This document shows, one piece after another, positions 3,929 to 21,806 of a DNA stretch of 26,466 nucleotides. Where the stretch lies: positions 1-26,466 of the IMG/VR virus record IMGVR_UViG_3300031519_000184. The stretch is one strand, 5' to 3'. Each line of letters begins with the position of its first letter. The first letter of the stretch is position 1. The position numbers were made by a program, and so were the translations under genes. The notes under the pieces were generated by a model, which was given only the letters and a program-made list of their open reading frames with translations, had not been told where the DNA came from and did no database searches. Origin of the DNA: a virus. Lineage: Duplodnaviria > Caudoviricetes.

Positions 3929-4079
3929 TGATAAGCCAATTAAAAAACAATCAATAACAATGACTACTATTTTTGGTAAAGCTATAGAAGCAGTTGTCGC
4001 TTATATTGTATTGTTTTTCTTTAGGCCAGTATGGGATAGATTAGTAAAGTGGTGGAATAAAAATGACAAAAATTCATAG
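3909..4079 (+). CDS. small membrane protein (56 aa)
   Basis: MKDHLGDD...AIEAVVAYIVLFFFRPVWDRLVKWW; one TM segment; fills the gap before thyX. Confidence 0.55.
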   Translation: MKDHLGDDKPIKKQSITMTTIFGKAIEAVVAYIVLFFFRPVWDRLVKWWNKNDKNS

Positions 4080-4719
4080 TGCTAAATTACTTAATGCTAC
4101 TCCAGATGCGGAAAAGAATGTAGCATATTGTGCCAGAGTGTCTAACCCAAACAATCAAGATAACAGTAGTATTGCCGGTTTACTTAGTTATTGTATTAAA
4201 CATAAGCACTGGTCTATCTTTGAGATGGCATTTATGACTGTTGAGATTAATACTAATAGAGGTATAGCTGCACAGATATTAAGACATAGAAGTTTTACCT
4301 TTCAAGAATTTAGCCAAAGATATGCAGACACAAATGATCTCGGCAACGATATACCATTACCAGATTTAAGATCGCAGGATCATAAGAACAGACAAAATAG
4401 TATAGATGATCTTGATGACGAGAAACAAGCAATGTATAACATGCAAATGAGAGAACTGTTTGCTAAATCAAAAGCATTATATGATAGTATGCTAGCAGAA
4501 GGTGTTGCAAAAGAATGTGCTAGATTTGTATTACCACTAGCAACTCCTACTAGATTATATATGAGTGGTAGTATTCGTAGTTGGATTCATTATATAGATT
4601 TAAGAAGTGCTAATGGTACTCAGAAAGAACATCAGGATATTGCTATAAGTTGTAAAGATATTTTCTGTAATCAATTTCCAATTATTTCGGTTGCATTAGG
4701 ATGGGCAAATGATAAATAA
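4063..4719 (+). CDS. thyX: flavin-dependent thymidylate synthase
   Basis: ThyX signature RHRSFTFQEFSQRY, plus HWSIFE, AKECARFVLP and RSWIHYIDLR...TQKEH. Confidence 0.97.
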   Translation: MTKIHSAKLLNATPDAEKNVAYCARVSNPNNQDNSSIAGLLSYCIKHKHWSIFEMAFMTVEINTNRGIAAQILRHRSFTFQEFSQRYADTNDLGNDIPLPDLRSQDHKNRQNSIDDLDDEKQAMYNMQMRELFAKSKALYDSMLAEGVAKECARFVLPLATPTRLYMSGSIRSWIHYIDLRSANGTQKEHQDIAISCKDIFCNQFPIISVALGWANDK

Positions 4720-4855
4720 TTTATTACATTTTTTAGGTTTGTGTCCATGTTCACATTCTCATTTTGATTTAATGGATGTGTTTCTAATATTTCCATTCCT
4801 ATTCTTTACCATAAAATCAGCAGCATATCACTTTGTGTCTTTCTTTAAAGTTTAG
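4709..4855 (+). CDS. small membrane protein (48 aa, HFLGLCPCSHSHFDL...)
   Basis: Overlaps the thyX end; His/Cys-rich N-terminus followed by a hydrophobic helix. Confidence 0.5.
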   Translation: MINNLLHFLGLCPCSHSHFDLMDVFLIFPFLFFTIKSAAYHFVSFFKV

Positions 4856-4856
4856 C

Positions 4857-4885
4857 TTGACAGTTGCCGATAGATATATTATAAT
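4857..4885 (+). promoter_or_regulatory. sigma70-type promoter with GCCGATA box (uvsE)
   Basis: TTGACA-17 bp-TATAAT, perfect consensus. Confidence 0.8.
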
Positions 4886-4906
4886 CATTTGGAAGAGGTA
4901 ACAATT

Positions 4907-5815
4907 ATGAAATTTGGACTATGCTGTATTTCTCTCGATCTTAAAGAACTAGGTTATAGCTTTCAAACTATGACTTACAAGCGTTTCTCATCACTTCCAC
5001 GCGAAGAGGCACTAGATATTCTAGGCTCTCGTATACTCAATAATATGCAGGTTACTCATGCCCACATTAGCTACTGTGCAGACAATGGTTATACTTATAG
5101 GATCAGTAGTGATCTATTTCCTCTTATTACCTATCGTCTTGCTAATATTACTCTTGCTGATGTTCCTCAATACAATGACATCGTTCAAGAAATAGCGGCA
5201 ATTAAACAAACTATAGAAGATACACAGGTTAGGGTATCTTGTCATCCTAGTGAGTTTAATGTTCTTGCATCCACTAATACTGATGCTGTTGACAGAACCA
5301 TTACAGAACTTAATTTTTACTCAGACTTCCTTGACAAACTAGGTTGTCCTGCCAATTATAATTGTCCGATGAATTTACATATAAACAATCGTCAGGGAAG
5401 TAACGATGAAGTTGTGGAAAGGTTTATACAGAATTTCAATAGACTTAGCTATAATTGTCGTAATCGTATTGTTATCGAAAACGATGATAAACTTAATTGC
5501 TGGTCTGTAAAACAACTATTAACAGATTTTTATCCTAAAACTAAAATACCAATTACGTTTGATTATCTGCATCACAAATGTCATCCAGATGGATGGACAG
5601 AACAACAAGCTATTAGATTTTGTTGTCTAACATGGGGCTATATAAAACCTTTGTTTCATTACAGCGAATCTGCACAGGGAAACAATCCACGCAAACATGC
5701 AGATTATGCAGAAAATGATTTCTATACTTATGAGGATTTAGACTACGATGTAGATATGGAATTAAAAATGAAAGACAAAGCAATCGCTAAATATATGGAA
5801 GGTGTATCAATATGA
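4907..5815 (+). CDS. uvsE: UV DNA damage endonuclease (UVDE)
   Basis: GLCC N-terminus, YRISSDLFP, RVSCHP, IVIENDDK, PITFDYLHH, PLFHYSES, RKHADY, DMELKMKD; start at ATG 4907 after GAGG. Confidence 0.95.
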   Translation: MKFGLCCISLDLKELGYSFQTMTYKRFSSLPREEALDILGSRILNNMQVTHAHISYCADNGYTYRISSDLFPLITYRLANITLADVPQYNDIVQEIAAIKQTIEDTQVRVSCHPSEFNVLASTNTDAVDRTITELNFYSDFLDKLGCPANYNCPMNLHINNRQGSNDEVVERFIQNFNRLSYNCRNRIVIENDDKLNCWSVKQLLTDFYPKTKIPITFDYLHHKCHPDGWTEQQAIRFCCLTWGYIKPLFHYSESAQGNNPRKHADYAENDFYTYEDLDYDVDMELKMKDKAIAKYMEGVSI

Positions 5816-6626: not shown

Positions 6627-7009
6627 TAATGAAAAAAAATGAAGAATATATTATTACAGATACAGAAGAATTTGTACAGCTAATGAGAGATACTGCTGCG
6701 TCTAGTCTTGCCGAAGAATATCTAGGTAAGATTAAAACATATTCAGATAAAGATTTAGATGGCATTGTGACTTTAAATCAAGTAGAATCAATTATCTCTG
6801 AAAAAAGCATAGAGATTGATGAAGAATCAAAATATATTATTGATGCAGATATTTTTGAAGATATCTTTGATGAAGTAAGAAATCTTATATATCAATCAGC
6901 AATGTCTCAACTTGCCGCTAAAGGATACATAGAGTGTGCATGGGATGACAAAAAAAACAAAATGATTTTTTGGGTTGACAAAGAAAAGGATCAAACTTAT
7001 AATAAGTAA
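6623..7009 (+). CDS. hypothetical acidic protein
   Basis: ORF track; GTG/ATG starts near 6623-6629. Confidence 0.7.
   Translation: MIMKKNEEYIITDTEEFVQLMRDTAASSLAEEYLGKIKTYSDKDLDGIVTLNQVESIISEKSIEIDEESKYIIDADIFEDIFDEVRNLIYQSAMSQLAAKGYIECAWDDKKNKMIFWVDKEKDQTYNK
6975..7003 (+). promoter_or_regulatory. sigma70-type promoter
   Basis: TTGACA-17 bp-TATAAT, perfect consensus in the 3' end of the upstream gene. Confidence 0.7.
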
Positions 7010-7075
7010 GATTTTTGTTTAGTGGTGACAAGAATCTTTTGTTTTTAAGGATACCACAATTTAAAGAGGTGTTGA

Positions 7076-7288
7076 ATGACGAAGCAAGATAAGGTTTTGA
7101 ATTATCTAACTAGAGGTAAGACTCTTAGCCAAGATAGTGCTTTTAGTATGTTTGAGGTAGGTAATCTTCGTGCCACTATTAGTGACATCAAGCCTACTCT
7201 CAAAAAGAGTGGTCTTACAGTAGTTCGTTCTACTGGTAGACAGGGTGAGACTCGCTATGGTGCAACTGCTACCAAGAAGCGTAGGTAA
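7076..7288 (+). CDS. small winged-helix DNA-binding protein
   Basis: KVLNYLTRGKTLS...A...F.V.NLRATISDIK...G wHTH pattern; basic C-terminus; GAGG SD. Confidence 0.7.
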   Translation: MTKQDKVLNYLTRGKTLSQDSAFSMFEVGNLRATISDIKPTLKKSGLTVVRSTGRQGETRYGATATKKRR

Positions 7289-7365
7289 ATAAAGTATTTC
7301 GGTGGCCCAGTTAAAGCCATTTAGGGTGTGTCTAATATATTATTATTAAAAAGGATATAGATAGT

Positions 7366-7551
7366 ATGGCTTCCTATCCCACTGAAATTCATCCAGCTAC
7401 TTATGTGCTATGGTTTTTATTAATGGCGAGTATTGCTACTAATTTTGTTCAACAATCACAAATAAAAAGACTTGACAAACAATTAGCACCTGTTATAATT
7501 AGACAGAACATTGAAGTATTTACACAACCTTTAGAGGACAGAATAATATAA
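7366..7551 (+). CDS. small membrane protein
   Basis: One TM segment (YVLWFLLMASIATNFV); AAGGA SD. Confidence 0.6.
   Translation: MASYPTEIHPATYVLWFLLMASIATNFVQQSQIKRLDKQLAPVIIRQNIEVFTQPLEDRII
7472..7499 (+). promoter_or_regulatory. sigma70-type promoter upstream of the ncRNA and tmRNA
   Basis: TTGACA-16 bp-TATAAT with an extended TG. Confidence 0.6.
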
Positions 7552-7587
7552 TACAAAACATATAGTGGGGATAGCCTCCTTGCTATA

Positions 7588-7753
7588 GGATGGTGGCTGA
7601 AAATGTGGTAGCCAGTATGAGATCACAACAGCACACGAGGCTCAGGAGGACGGGCAAGTGCCATACAGTCTTGAGATAGTGGTTCAAAGTAGGGAAATCT
7701 GACATATCATACCCTGAAACTTTGGAGGTAATAAAATAAATCCTCCCCATCCA
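7588..7753 (+). ncRNA. candidate tRNA-like structured RNA of unknown class
   Basis: Terminal stem GGATGG(7588-93)/CCATCC(7747-52) plus A; D-like hairpin TGGCTG/TAGCCA; T-like stem GGAGG/CCTCC abutting the terminal stem; internal hairpins; no + strand ORF. Confidence 0.55.
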
Positions 7754-7765
7754 ATAATACAAACC

Positions 7766-8105
7766 GGGGGCGTACTGGTTTCGACAGGTGAATAGAAGTA
7801 TAGATCGCATCGACTGGTTGATCTAAAGGCCAGTTTAAAAATAGATCAGATTTTAATTGCCGATACTTCTGTATTAGCACTCGCCGCTTAGGTGAGAGGG
7901 GTTGTATAAACCTTTTTACCCAATTATGCTGACTCCGATAATCGGATAGGGTTGTCCTACCTGAATTAAGACGGTCGATTAGTGTATTCACTATGACGCA
8001 GGAAAGACTGATAGTTTTGTCTGTAGTATTAATAACAACAGAATAACGATGTAGAAGTTTATGTGGAATTTACACTGGACAGGGGTTCGACTCCCCTCGC
8101 CTCCA
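7766..8105 (+). ncRNA. ssrA: tmRNA (one-piece), tag peptide (A)ADTSVLALAA
   Basis: 5' GGGGGCGTACTGGTTTCGAC; 3' GGACAGGGGTTCGACTCCCCTCGCCTCCA. Acceptor stem GGGGGCG/CGCCTCC has the G3:U alanine determinant. Helix 2 CAGGTGAAT/ATTTACACTG and GCATCG/CGATGT. Tag ORF 7859-7891 ends ALAA-TAG. CCA not encoded. Confidence 0.95.
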
Positions 8106-8108
8106 CTT

Positions 8109-8390
8109 ATGAAAATTAAAGTAATCCTATTATCGTTCCTGTTGCTTTTAAATGCTGTAGAAAAAGTTCGGCATAATCAGGTACTTAGATTTTTAATAGA
8201 TGGCAGACCAAAGCAGATAATATATTTTCATAGTACATTTATGTTTACACATATTGAAGTTGAAGTTGTTAAACCAGAGATAAGAAAAGATTGTGCCGCT
8301 TTTGAATGTATGAACATATATATATTTTGTGAAAATTTTAATTTACATCACACAATTCATTGGAGATATATAAAATTTATTGAAACATAA
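8109..8390 (+). CDS. hypothetical protein with signal peptide or TM anchor
   Basis: Start reassigned to ATG 8109 (MKIKVILLSFLLLL), after the tmRNA end. Confidence 0.55.
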   Translation: MKIKVILLSFLLLLNAVEKVRHNQVLRFLIDGRPKQIIYFHSTFMFTHIEVEVVKPEIRKDCAAFECMNIYIFCENFNLHHTIHWRYIKFIET

Positions 8391-8440
8391 GGTGTATAGT
8401 AATAGTGTTGCAGCATCACTATAACTTGGAGAGACATCTA

Positions 8441-8716
8441 ATGTTCAAAAAAATTAAATTACATTTGGAACAGAATGATATGACATATTGGGAACACTTT
8501 AGATTCGCTTCAGGTTATGGTATTGGTTGTATCTATCACGGTATACTATTAATAATTCATTCTATAATACCTTCATATTTTTCTACCGCAGGTGCTAATC
8601 TAGCTAACTTATTGAATAAAGTTTTTACAGACCAGAATGAATATCTTAGTTTGAAACATAGAGTAGAAGCATTTAAAAAGATAGTATATTATTATCGTTC
8701 AAAAGAATTAAAGTAA
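8441..8716 (+). CDS. DUF6356-like membrane protein
   Basis: HL...MTYWEHFRFA...G...IIHSIIP..F pattern; start ATG 8441 after TTGGAG. Confidence 0.7.
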   Translation: MFKKIKLHLEQNDMTYWEHFRFASGYGIGCIYHGILLIIHSIIPSYFSTAGANLANLLNKVFTDQNEYLSLKHRVEAFKKIVYYYRSKELK

Positions 8717-13829: not shown

Positions 13830-15176
13830 ATGGACGATAAATTCCCACAAGGATGCAGAACTGCTACATTACACGCTATAGCTATGATGGTTGAACTGCG
13901 TAACAACAGTGGTACTATAGCCAAGCAGGAAATCATTGCCAAGTATTGTAAAGCAGGTAAAGAGGAAGATAACGGATTTCAGCTACATGCTAGAAACGTA
14001 TTGAATCTAGCACACAATGACTATCTTATGTATGGCTTAACAAGTAACCAAGTTAAAAAACGACCAGACTTATTTTTCGGAGATTGTGAGGCAGGTTACG
14101 GTCTATGCCAACTGTTTAACGATTTAACTCTTCGTAGATACACAGGACATGATGCTATCAGAATTGTTAATACTTATATCAATAAATTCCCTGAACAAGA
14201 AGAACTTGTCTATTGTATCTTAGATAAAGACCTAAAGACTAAGGTTGGTGTTAAACTTATTAATAAAGTTATCCCCGACTTTATTCCAGAGTTCAGTGTC
14301 GCTCTTGCAGAAAAGTATCAACCTAAATTAGTGGAGTGGGAAGATGAGTGGTTTGTATCTCGTAAACTTGATGGGGTTAGATGTTTGGCTATTGTCGATC
14401 ATTTTGGTAATACTACTTTCTACTCCAGAACGGGCAAAGAATTTACTACCTTGGGTGTTGTTGCCGATGGGATTACAAGTCTTGGTTTATCTAATGTTGT
14501 GTTTGACGGAGAACTTTGTCTGATTGATGAAGATGGTAACGAAGACTTTCAAGGTATTATGAAGCAACTTCGTAAGAAAGATCATACTATTAAGAACCCA
14601 TCTTACAAAATCTTTGATATGATGACCCAAGATGAATTTAAATCTAAGAAGAGTGAACATAATCTATATCAGAGATATAAAGAACTATTGTTTACTATGG
14701 AAGATAATGAATGTCCCTGCCTGTCTGCATTAGAAATGGAGATAGTAGATGATGATGAACACTTTCAACAGTGGGTATCTAAAGCAGATGATGATGGTTG
14801 GGAAGGTGTTATGCTCCGTAAGAATGTAGCATACAAAGGTAAACGTAGTAAAGATTTATTAAAGGTAAAAACCTTCTATGATGCTGAGTATAAAGTACTC
14901 GATACAGAAATGGGTATGTTCCCTCTGACATTAAATGGCAAAGAGTGTGAAGAAGAAATGCTATCATGTGTTTATATTAAACATAAAGATCATACTGTTA
15001 GAGTTGGTAGTGGATTCTCTATAGAGCAACGACAGGACTTTTATAAAAATCCTGATGCTATCTTAGGTAAGATTATAACAGTGCAATATTTTGAAGAGAC
15101 TAAGAATCAGGAAGGGGGTATAAGTCTTAGATTTCCTACTTTCAAAATATTACATGGTGATGCGAGATTAGTATGA
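13830..15176 (+). CDS. ATP-dependent DNA ligase
   Basis: Motif I KLDGVR, SRTGK, FDGEL, IFD, EGVMLR, LLKVK, VGSG and LRFP. Confidence 0.96.
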   Translation: MDDKFPQGCRTATLHAIAMMVELRNNSGTIAKQEIIAKYCKAGKEEDNGFQLHARNVLNLAHNDYLMYGLTSNQVKKRPDLFFGDCEAGYGLCQLFNDLTLRRYTGHDAIRIVNTYINKFPEQEELVYCILDKDLKTKVGVKLINKVIPDFIPEFSVALAEKYQPKLVEWEDEWFVSRKLDGVRCLAIVDHFGNTTFYSRTGKEFTTLGVVADGITSLGLSNVVFDGELCLIDEDGNEDFQGIMKQLRKKDHTIKNPSYKIFDMMTQDEFKSKKSEHNLYQRYKELLFTMEDNECPCLSALEMEIVDDDEHFQQWVSKADDDGWEGVMLRKNVAYKGKRSKDLLKVKTFYDAEYKVLDTEMGMFPLTLNGKECEEEMLSCVYIKHKDHTVRVGSGFSIEQRQDFYKNPDAILGKIITVQYFEETKNQEGGISLRFPTFKILHGDARLV

Positions 15177-19963: not shown

Positions 19964-19973
19964 TATAAGTATT

Positions 19974-20046
19974 GGGAGTGTAGCCCAAAGGCAGAGGCAC
20001 TGGACTTAAAATCCATACAGTGTGGGTTCGACTCCCGCCACTCCTA
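19974..20046 (+). tRNA. tRNA-Leu (anticodon UAA), short variable loop
   Basis: Acceptor GGGAGTG/CACTCCT plus A73; anticodon arm TGGA-CTTAAAA-TCCA; T arm GTGGG-TTCGACT-CCCGC; CCA not encoded. Confidence 0.92.
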
Positions 20047-20080
20047 TTGTTGTGTTTTACCTTAACTAGAAAGATAGATA

Positions 20081-20840: not shown

Positions 20841-21806
20841 ATGAAAAATCGTAAAGGTTTTACTCTCATCGAATTACTGGTAGTTATTGCAATCATTGGA
20901 GTTTTAGTTGGTCTTTTATTACCCGCTGTTCAGTCTGCAAGAGAAGCGGCACGAAGAATGTCATGTGCCAATAATTTAAAACAACAAGGTTTAGCGGCAC
21001 ATACAAGCATGGATTCACAAAGATACTTTCCTGCTGCTTCTTGGACAGTTGACTCTGCTGGTAAATCTAACACAGGCAATCGTTCAGGCACAGAACATAG
21101 TTGGAGAGCCTCATTACTATCACAAATGGAGCAAAGAGCAATAGCAGATCAATATGATTTTAGTAAAAATTGGTGGGAACAAAATGCTACAGTACTAGGT
21201 GCAAACCTATCTGTATTTAAATGCCCTTCTGCTTTATCTCCTGCCGGTGGTTATGCTAGTGTGGATGGGCCTACTAGAGATGATGACAGTGCTGCTACAA
21301 CCATGAATCCTAATAATCTTGGATATACAGACTATGAAACCTTTACAGGTATTAAAAGTAAAGTATTTCCTGCTGCTTCTGATATTTATGCAGCAAAAGA
21401 TAGAAATGAAGGTTGTTTAATTAAAGACGCAGTAACTAGAGATGCTCATATTAGAGATGGGTTTTCTAACACTTTATTAATTGTAGAGTGCGGAAGTAGA
21501 CCCGATACTTATAAAGCTGATACTAATAATGGTGCAACTCCTACTGGTGCTACTAATCAGTGTATCGGATGGGCAGATAGTGTTGGGCCATTTAAGTTAG
21601 ATGGTATGGATAGTAATGGAGATAAGTGTAAGAATTGTGCTGGTAATATTCCTTTTGGAGTTACTAATAATGGTGAAGCGTTTAGTTTTCATCCCGGCAT
21701 TATGAATGCTTGTTATGCTGATGGTTCAGTCAGAACTATTAATGATAATGTAGATTTATCTGTATTTGCTGCTTTACTTACCAGAGCAGGTGGAGAGACT
21801 AATTAA
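20841..21806 (+). CDS. DUF1559 prepilin-type N-methylation / H-X9-DG domain protein (planctomycete-type)
   Basis: KG|FTLIELLVVIAIIGVLVGLLLPAVQSAREAARRMSCANNLKQ.GLA.H; IRDGFSNTLLIVE; FSFHPGIMNACYADGSVR (H-X9-DG); C-terminal LLTRAGGE. Confidence 0.96.
   Translation: MKNRKGFTLIELLVVIAIIGVLVGLLLPAVQSAREAARRMSCANNLKQQGLAAHTSMDSQRYFPAASWTVDSAGKSNTGNRSGTEHSWRASLLSQMEQRAIADQYDFSKNWWEQNATVLGANLSVFKCPSALSPAGGYASVDGPTRDDDSAATTMNPNNLGYTDYETFTGIKSKVFPAASDIYAAKDRNEGCLIKDAVTRDAHIRDGFSNTLLIVECGSRPDTYKADTNNGATPTGATNQCIGWADSVGPFKLDGMDSNGDKCKNCAGNIPFGVTNNGEAFSFHPGIMNACYADGSVRTINDNVDLSVFAALLTRAGGETN

Follow-up and report, generated by a model that had tools for sequence, protein, structure and literature searches.

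What kind of RNA is encoded directly in front of the transfer-messenger RNA (tmRNA) gene of the virus record IMGVR_UViG_3300031519_000184 (Duplodnaviria; Caudoviricetes), and does it act on the tmRNA or on its own? The window analysed here is the whole stretch of 26,466 nt (positions 1 to 26,466 of the IMG/VR record), and the element in question is a 193-nt segment at 7561-7753 on its plus strand. A first-pass annotation made from the sequence alone had read it as a transfer RNA (tRNA)-like scaffold, possibly of a new class, that is co-transcribed with the tmRNA and cut out of the transcript. We find that the element is a real, conserved, pseudoknotted non-coding RNA, supported by conservation and not by single-sequence stability. 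By its matches to RNAs that pass the family threshold and by its synteny, we assign it to the manA RNA motif (Rfam RF01745) as a size-reduced relative, and not to a new class as had been proposed. The explanation that we consider rather probable is that this reduced manA RNA is made, likely in one precursor with the tmRNA, and freed by RNase P as a separate stable RNA.

The fold of the single sequence would not have carried this conclusion. Its minimum free energy (MFE) is -59.9 kcal/mol, with z = -2.08, and 5 of 200 shuffled sequences fold equally well; this is only moderately unusual, so that thermodynamics alone is insufficient to establish a structured RNA. Conservation is more telling: between related contigs the element is 85-100% conserved, while the flanks diverge or differ outright. 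In an alignment of ten distinct homologous sequences (A1), a structure made up of ten helices and one pseudoknot (56 pairs in all) is 97.8% paired, and 16 of the 56 pairs have changed on both sides, a count reached by none of 500 shuffles and compared with 0-2 in slid controls. Compensatory change in the stems of related phages, which the first-pass annotation had named as the way to check its proposal, is thus present. The parts of the structure are the following.

7561..7587, plus strand: P1 hairpin (7561-7571/7577-7587, 5-nt loop); 11 pairs, 5 changed on both sides, 96.4% of cells paired.
7588..7752, plus strand: P2 closing stem (7588-7593/7747-7752), which encloses the core and had been called the acceptor stem; 6 pairs, 100% paired, 2 compensatory.
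7596..7632, plus strand: P3 (7596-7597/7631-7632), a CUGAAAA internal loop and the stem P3b (7605-7609/7622-7626), supported by covariation; 3 of 5 P3b pairs compensatory.
7616..7711, plus strand: pseudoknot between the P3 loop (7616-7620) and the P5 loop (7707-7711); 5 pairs, 100% paired, two compensatory.
7634..7681, plus strand: P4 domain, one bulged hairpin (7634-7636/7679-7681; 7641-7647/7669-7675; 7653-7655/7660-7662), supported by pair counts in the homologues.
7686..7723, plus strand: P5, a two-part hairpin (P5a, 7686-7690/7719-7723; P5b, 7691-7694/7712-7715); 89.6% and 97.5% paired, respectively.
7724..7746, plus strand: P6 terminal hairpin GGAGG/CCTCC with a 13-nt A/U loop, stacked on P2 and formerly called the T-like arm; invariant in all ten sequences.

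The two pseudoknot pairs that covary do so as CG in six sequences and UA in four, and as UA in nine and AU in one. The P3 pair 36-72 covaries as well (AU in six, GC in four), P5a carries a recurrent G-A mismatch at pair 129-160, and the outermost P2 pair is swapped from G-C to A-U in locus L325 (by eye). All the motifs that had been listed are where they were placed, namely the upstream hairpin, GGATGG/CCATCC, TGGCTG..TAGCCA, GGAGG/CCTCC and the complementary GTATGA (7615-7620) and TCATAC (7707-7712), and the GC content of the element is indeed above that of its surroundings (45.6% against 32.7% in the window). The closing stem, the invariant T-like hairpin, the middle stems and the pseudoknot are upheld by the ten-sequence alignment. 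The D-like hairpin is not: its sequence is present, but pair 36-52 is broken in 6 of the 10 sequences and pair 35-53 in 2, without any compensatory change, and covariation gives base 36 the partner 72. Moreover, one-base insertions or deletions separate the homologues at A1 columns 125, 139 and 160, and these, together with the pattern of compensatory substitutions, rule out coding on either strand.

To which known RNA is this structure related? No family in Rfam matches the element at its gathering threshold. With an E-value cut-off, the best family other than tmRNA is manA, at 21.5 bits and E 0.0015 in a 401-nt search, aligned over the whole model (1-192) on 7570-7756; a described family was therefore met by the Rfam scan that had been suggested, yet well below that family's threshold of 55.2 bits. 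The 3' end of the model is matched by the helices P6 and P2 at high posterior probability, and most of the central domain is deleted in the alignment; the full central junction is seen in L163 and L072. The manA match recurs in 5 of 7 relative loci searched (16.8-24.9 bits), L080 and L018 not being among the matches, and a search of the window's own record with RF01745, using a first-look filter stricter than that of cmscan, returned nothing at E <= 10.

The connection is also made by a covariance model, R1, built from the sequences of the reduced family. R1 finds an RNA in L072 at 43.3 bits (E 6.7e-13) that scores 71.1 bits with Rfam manA; the 14-mer that had led to L072 lies in a region omitted from the R1 alignment, and this manA is preceded by a homologue of the 70-aa gene that lies upstream of the element in the window (43% identity, E 2e-15). 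A P6 pattern retrieved 29 loci, and eight of them that are not of the reduced form gave full-length matches with R1. Six of the eight are distinct, and five of these six pass the manA threshold: L318 (R1 58.8 bits, Rfam manA 73.4), L331 (39.2 and 88.2), L324 (34.6 and 83.6), L315 (31.0 and 88.1) and L329 (17.8 and 60.3). The sixth, L327, has 42.4 bits with R1 and a sub-threshold 38.8 bits with manA; the remaining two, L310 and L320, score exactly like L072, L310 being on the same contig. The six distinct RNAs found by R1 that lie above the manA threshold (L072 and the five) have R1 E-values of 1e-18 to 8e-5. The other 15 pattern loci lacking a full-length R1 match gave four local matches of at most 7.1 bits and eleven none, and the 14 of them that were scanned with Rfam have no manA at E <= 0.01. 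When the filters were switched off, R1 had a match on the published manA coordinates (Table S7 of PMC9964418) in 4 of 5 cyanophage loci, and manA was its top match in three: S-SSM7 (14.9 bits, E 2.4e-4), P-SSM2 (E 0.026) and S-CREM1 (E 0.059). In a joint alignment of reduced and canonical sequences (A2), which is fitted to the model and has its P6 fixed by the search pattern, 33 of 51 pairs have changed on both sides, again reached by none of 500 shuffles, with slid controls at 8-15.

The order of the helices tells the same story, from the 5' hairpin to the terminal hairpin stacked on the closing stem. The 5' hairpin and the core-enclosing closing stem of manA correspond to P1 and P2, both of which covary and align to the model; the hairpin of manA with the internal loop GUGNCUGAA(U/A)AA has its counterpart in GGUGGCUGAAAAU at 7592-7604, whose flanking pair is the covarying 36-72; the two-part hairpin and the terminal GGUA...AAUCC hairpin adjoining the closing stem correspond to P5 and P6. 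The element and the manA motif (as described in PMC2864571) also have a marine phage setting in common. They differ in that P1 is longer in the element (11 bp) and that the element precedes a tmRNA where the manA motif precedes a protein gene. The element has a covarying pseudoknot between the P3 and P5 loops; the 'pseudoknot?' label of manA in the 2010 article (PMC2864571) belongs to a figure outside this comparison.

A number of observations count against this assignment or weaken its base. The element's own score is far under the manA threshold, L173 has no Rfam manA match even at E <= 1, the matches of R1 to the cyanophages are weak with filters off (P-SSM4 at E 7.7, P-HM1 missed), and with default filters R1 missed the manA of S-CREM1. 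The central three-hairpin junction of manA is replaced by one bulged hairpin (7641-7675). The fitting of A2 to the model and the fixed P6 have already been mentioned; the ten sequences of A1 are close relatives with an effective number of 0.97, so that independent covariation events are few. Since neither the threshold is reached nor the three-hairpin junction present, we file the element as a reduced variant of manA and not as a plain member.

How are the homologues distributed? Scanning viral contigs with the first 20 bases of the tmRNA gave 42 loci, in 8 of which the tmRNA is immediately preceded by the element; in the L003 group, seven of those 42 loci, a small open reading frame (ORF) with a promoter-like sequence joins the tmRNA directly and no element is found between them. 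The element is thus a unit that has been inserted into the tmRNA leader or deleted from it. Additional copies were recovered through a 14-mer scan, through the P6-based pattern and in the neighbourhood of upstream-gene homologues. The scan with the 14-mer GACGGGCAAGTGCC yielded mostly chance matches, a related RNA being present in about a dozen of 120 loci. With blastn, the segment 7450-7770 matched none of 50,697 phage records and the manA of S-CREM1 matched only itself, from which we conclude that BLAST is too insensitive for RNAs of the manA type. The R1 search of ten syntenic loci (L169, L172, L174, L177, L178 and L180-L184) revealed no copy at E <= 10. Of the syntenic loci covered by the Rfam scan, most contain a tmRNA, some with an abiF RNA or tRNAs in place of the element: abiF (RF03085, 38.3 bits; threshold 37) lies between the upstream gene and the tmRNA at L178:3232-3268, L179:3232-3268 and L183:202-238, three loci that have no manA-type RNA, and tRNAs occupy the same position in L172 and L182. 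The locus behaves like an island for small RNA genes.

What surrounds manA-type RNAs elsewhere? A near-identical copy of the element (235 bits) in L325 is preceded by another gene and by a TTGACT-17-TATAAT site (by eye), and is directly followed by a long hairpin and a T-run (736-805); ARAGORN found no tmRNA in this 1,427-nt locus. A hairpin and T-run of the same type lie between element and tmRNA in L010 (1421-1482) and L036, where the tmRNA starts 3 nt past the T-run, and the L325 and L010 hairpin stems differ by an A-U to G-C swap. Such a hairpin with a U-run after the reduced element occurs only in these three loci. In L080 the element is found about 10 nt before a phosphoribosyltransferase (PRTase) ORF, which is followed by an IMPDH/GMP-reductase ORF; in L173 it is found about 19 nt before a small Cys/His-rich ORF, and in L176 likewise before such an ORF. 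The Cys/His-rich ORF of L173 has no Pfam match and looks HNH-like by eye only. The genes after the reduced element, namely the tmRNA, the PRTase and IMPDH/GMP-reductase pair and the Cys/His-rich ORF, are mutually unrelated.

Canonical manA RNAs are equally varied in their neighbours. In P-SSM2 the motif lies 16 nt before purL; in S-CREM1 (OP535465, 10215-10429) it is situated between tRNA-Leu and tRNA-Asn, with 0 nt to tRNA-Asn, and in S-SSM7 (GU071098, 151363-151563) it abuts tRNA-Gly, also at 0 nt. The canonical 14-mer gave 120 loci, 106 with an nhmmer match to manA and 94 of these with at least 100 nt of downstream sequence, from contigs that are possibly redundant; a tRNA on the same strand begins 0-15 nt after manA in 6 of the 94, and in two further loci a tRNA lies 6-8 nt before it. 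manA abutting a tRNA is thus a recurrent minority arrangement. Two other manA-like RNAs have a Pistol ribozyme (threshold 34.5 bits) upstream on the same strand: in L094 the ribozyme (1311-1365, 43.3 bits) lies about 50 nt before the RNA at 1418-1629, which scores 34.6 bits with R1 and has no Rfam manA match at E <= 1, and in L327 (321-387, 58.6 bits) about 170 nt before the RNA at 553-733. Taken together, these settings, with their own promoter-like and terminator-like signals, tRNAs, Pistol ribozymes and varied partners, speak for an RNA that forms a separate unit.

Two side observations concern the canonical RNAs themselves. T-rich runs, for example TTTATTTTTT, lie directly 3' of three canonical manA RNAs of 83.6-88.2 bits (L331, L324 and L315, after position 733), and in L331 a TTGACA box lies beyond the run; the closing stem and U-run of these three may themselves terminate transcription. 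'Hypothetical protein' coding sequences are annotated over published manA coordinates in P-SSM4 (164884-165057; L186), P-HM1 (112705-112881; L188) and S-SSM7 (151441-151572; L187), and these are probably spurious ORF calls on an RNA gene.

How is the element expressed in the window? The features on either side of it are the following.

7076..7288, plus strand: upstream gene encoding a 70-aa protein (MTKQDK...NLRATISDIKP), the syntenic anchor of the RNA; 21 related loci found.
7366..7551, plus strand: small ORF of 61 aa from the ORF list, its protein conserved in relatives, with the promoter-like site within its 3' part.
7472..7499, plus strand: putative sigma-70-type promoter, TTGACA-16-TATAAT with a TG extension; 12 of 12 consensus positions.
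7754..7765, plus strand: 12-nt spacer between the element and the tmRNA 5' end, seen in the sequence; a predicted RNase P cut falls at 7765/7766.
7766..8108, plus strand: one-piece tmRNA with the tag peptide ADTSVLALAA; ARAGORN 7766-8106, Rfam RF00023 7766-8108, 105.6 bits, full model 1-374.

The tmRNA start at 7766, given by both ARAGORN and Rfam, agrees with the 12-nt distance that had been reported, and the promoter-like sequence that had been recognised at 7472-7499 matches the consensus in full; the same promoter-like site is present in L010. Neither the 70-aa protein nor the 61-aa ORF of the window has a Pfam match; the L072 homologue of the former has a weak, sub-threshold match to a winged helix-turn-helix domain (HTH_39, E 4.8e-4), and homologues of the latter are found in L173 and, by eye, in seven loci of the L003 group. 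A terminator scan of 7000-8600 found none, and transcription starting near 7506, as the promoter-like sequence suggests, would place the element in a tmRNA leader of about 260 nt. Six marine metatranscriptome runs contain this stretch, and in all four of those examined as assembled contigs, contigs of a close variant bridge the junction between element and tmRNA (X12, 7349-8042; X8, 7609-7884; X9, 7581-7884; X11, 7581-7848). Contigs from the four RNA runs give no cover of 8116-8300, and this absence of cover beyond 8116 is a weak hint that the signal comes from RNA. Assembled contigs reveal neither the ends nor the strand nor the levels of an RNA, and DNA carry-over into RNA libraries is possible; contig depths were not taken as a rank of expression, nor contig breaks near 7578-7609 as RNA ends.

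The tmRNA is bordered by a few further observations. The RNA-library contigs end at its 3' end, with adapter letters directly after 8106 (X8) and 8099 (X9). In the contig variant of X11 and X12, 102 nt of the pseudoknot region (window 7891-7994) are exchanged for about 100 other letters; the tmRNAs of related phages vary in this segment. The element as a part or second piece of the tmRNA was considered and rejected, since the one-piece tmRNA is complete alone (model 1-374 at 7766-8108); a permuted tmRNA was rejected as well, since its threshold is 47 bits and the junction matches in relatives have no more than 17.5-26.3.

Cleavage by RNase P at the 5' end is an established step of tmRNA maturation. 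The bridging contigs from RNA libraries and the consensus promoter make co-transcription followed by RNase P release plausible, so that this part of the first-pass proposal is supported and its tRNA-type scaffold is not. In the mechanism that we favour, the sigma-70-type promoter at 7472-7499 would give one precursor comprising element and tmRNA, the RNase P cut at 7765/7766 would release the element as a separate stable RNA, and the freed RNA would act on its own; the start site, the release and the independent action are steps that we infer. Self-assembly of the freed RNA is one possibility, as manA RNAs are reported to form pentamer-based octamers, decamers and a 60-mer cage through kissing loops, the peripheral helices differing between variants (as described in bioRxiv 10.64898/2026.07.01.735769). 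By analogy, the element might self-assemble if the manA core is kept, and the peripheral hairpins that it has lost may be those making the assembly contacts. A wider generalisation, which we put forward tentatively and hold at less than an even chance, is that manA-class RNAs are stand-alone phage RNA genes whose ends are set by whatever signal adjoins them (RNase P at a tRNA or tmRNA, a Pistol ribozyme or a terminator of their own), the trimmed form being a minimal core tied to an island of translation and ribosome-rescue RNAs and perhaps forming RNA-only particles during infection.

We rank the stand-alone, RNase P-released RNA as most likely, and its main rival is a cis-acting, riboswitch-like leader, in which the fold, perhaps with a bound ligand, would control the amount or maturation of the downstream RNA, here the tmRNA and in relatives the RNA of purine-salvage or other genes. 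We judge this rival unlikely but serious. Weinberg 2010 (PMC2864571) rated manA, found before genes for nucleotide synthesis and others, as a riboswitch candidate, and a glutamine (glnA) riboswitch lies within a phage tmRNA gene according to PMC9004378. The element is always on the same strand as the next gene and close to it, at the distances already given for the tmRNA, L080, L173 and purL of P-SSM2. In L080 and L173 an ORF starts some 10-20 nt after the element, which fits such a leader equally well, and so does the hairpin and U-run between element and tmRNA in L010, an arrangement shared with L036 that resembles a transcriptional expression platform. On the other hand, manA-type RNAs located 0-12 nt before a tRNA or tmRNA leave no room for an expression platform, the element of L325 is followed by its terminator-like hairpin with no tmRNA found in that locus, in the MFE structure the element and the L010 hairpin fold separately, and the downstream genes have no common theme, nor has manA a known ligand. 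An antiterminator pairing of P2 CCCAUC with GGUGGG of the L010 hairpin, noted by eye, was dropped, as it comprises 6 bp in one lineage.

The reading with which the locus was first described, a new mimic of the tRNA, tmRNA or Y RNA kind that uses an acceptor/T-arm scaffold as an anticodon-nuclease decoy or a ribosome-rescue partner, now seems very improbable. P2 (6 bp) stacks directly on P6 (5 bp), with an unpaired A after it, and does resemble an acceptor/T minihelix, and the element adjoins a tmRNA; but P2 and P6 are standard manA helices, and the P1 hairpin lies directly 5' of the supposed acceptor stem. The D-like arm, as seen above, fails in most homologues and its bases covary elsewhere, and the element has no T-loop consensus, anticodon arm or encoded CCA. 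ARAGORN detects nothing in it, and Rfam at E <= 10 gives no tRNA, Y RNA or YrlA family.

Lower still, at a chance that we regard as negligible, are a sponge for CsrA/RsmA-type proteins and the absence of any RNA function. The former had been suggested for the GGA motifs, of which the 193 nt hold six, but shuffled sequences have 4.0 +/- 1.7 and 18% of them reach six, and five of the six lie inside covarying stems and not in hairpin loops. A chance-structured spacer or a short coding stretch on either strand could point to the modest z of the single sequence and to minus-strand ORFs of 57-75 aa that overlap the element, but is already contradicted by the covariation in A1 and the joint alignment, by the conservation against diverging flanks with compensatory substitutions in the stems, by one-base indels that would shift any frame and by the recurrence of one intact unit at several different genomic positions.

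The closest arrangements known differ from that of the window in instructive ways. In the tRNA arrays of the cyanophages S-CREM1 and S-SSM7, the 3' end of manA abuts an RNase P substrate at 0 nt, compared with 12 nt here, and these RNAs are full-size, unlike the element (96.6 bits in the present analysis; 122.8 bits in Table S7 of PMC9964418). The glnA riboswitch of phage Melnitz and the pelagimyophages is likewise a marine RNA motif described in 2010 and joined to a phage tmRNA, as reported in PMC9004378; there the motif is located in the 3' domain of a permuted two-piece tmRNA, whereas the window has a one-piece tmRNA with a manA-type RNA in its 5' leader. In phage T4, the small stable RNAs C and D are non-tRNA species within the tRNA cluster, co-transcribed with it and matured by the tRNA-processing machinery. 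Their likeness to the element is an analogy of arrangement only. The literature searched on manA and on tmRNA and pelagimyophages, with subscription journals and the supplements of Weinberg 2010 outside its scope, describes no manA-type RNA upstream of a tmRNA. What is new here is the reduced architecture under the Rfam threshold, its place in the tmRNA leader and the arrangements that bear on the nature of manA.

Among the orphan RNAs of marine phages, manA is widespread, and it has been a riboswitch candidate for 16 years. The reduced form falls under the Rfam threshold and is therefore missed by current annotation, yet it provides a natural minimal manA, devoid of two of the three junction hairpins, and the graded forms linking it to canonical manA can help to widen the family model and to decide which helices belong to the core. 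The fusion to a tmRNA, the promoter-RNA-terminator unit and the tRNA and Pistol neighbours make the choice between riboswitch and stand-alone RNA directly testable. The locus further shows that the leader of a phage tmRNA gene can hold a structured RNA as a passenger.

Finally, some features of the wider window concern the phage itself. The genes at 4063-5815 and 13830-15176 include ThyX, a UvdE UV-endonuclease, an ATP-dependent DNA ligase, glycosyltransferases and a sulfotransferase; by the DNA ligase, the nearest isolate phages are only 31-35% identical, and the phage has thus no close cultured relative. A tRNA-Leu gene (anticodon TAA, 56.7 bits) is located at 19973-20047, about 12 kb downstream of the tmRNA. 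At 20841-21806 the window encodes a 321-aa protein with an N-terminal prepilin-type methylation motif and a DUF1559 domain (SBP_bac_10, E 1.6e-43); proteins that combine the two are characteristic of Planctomycetota and Verrucomicrobiota, which may hint at the host.

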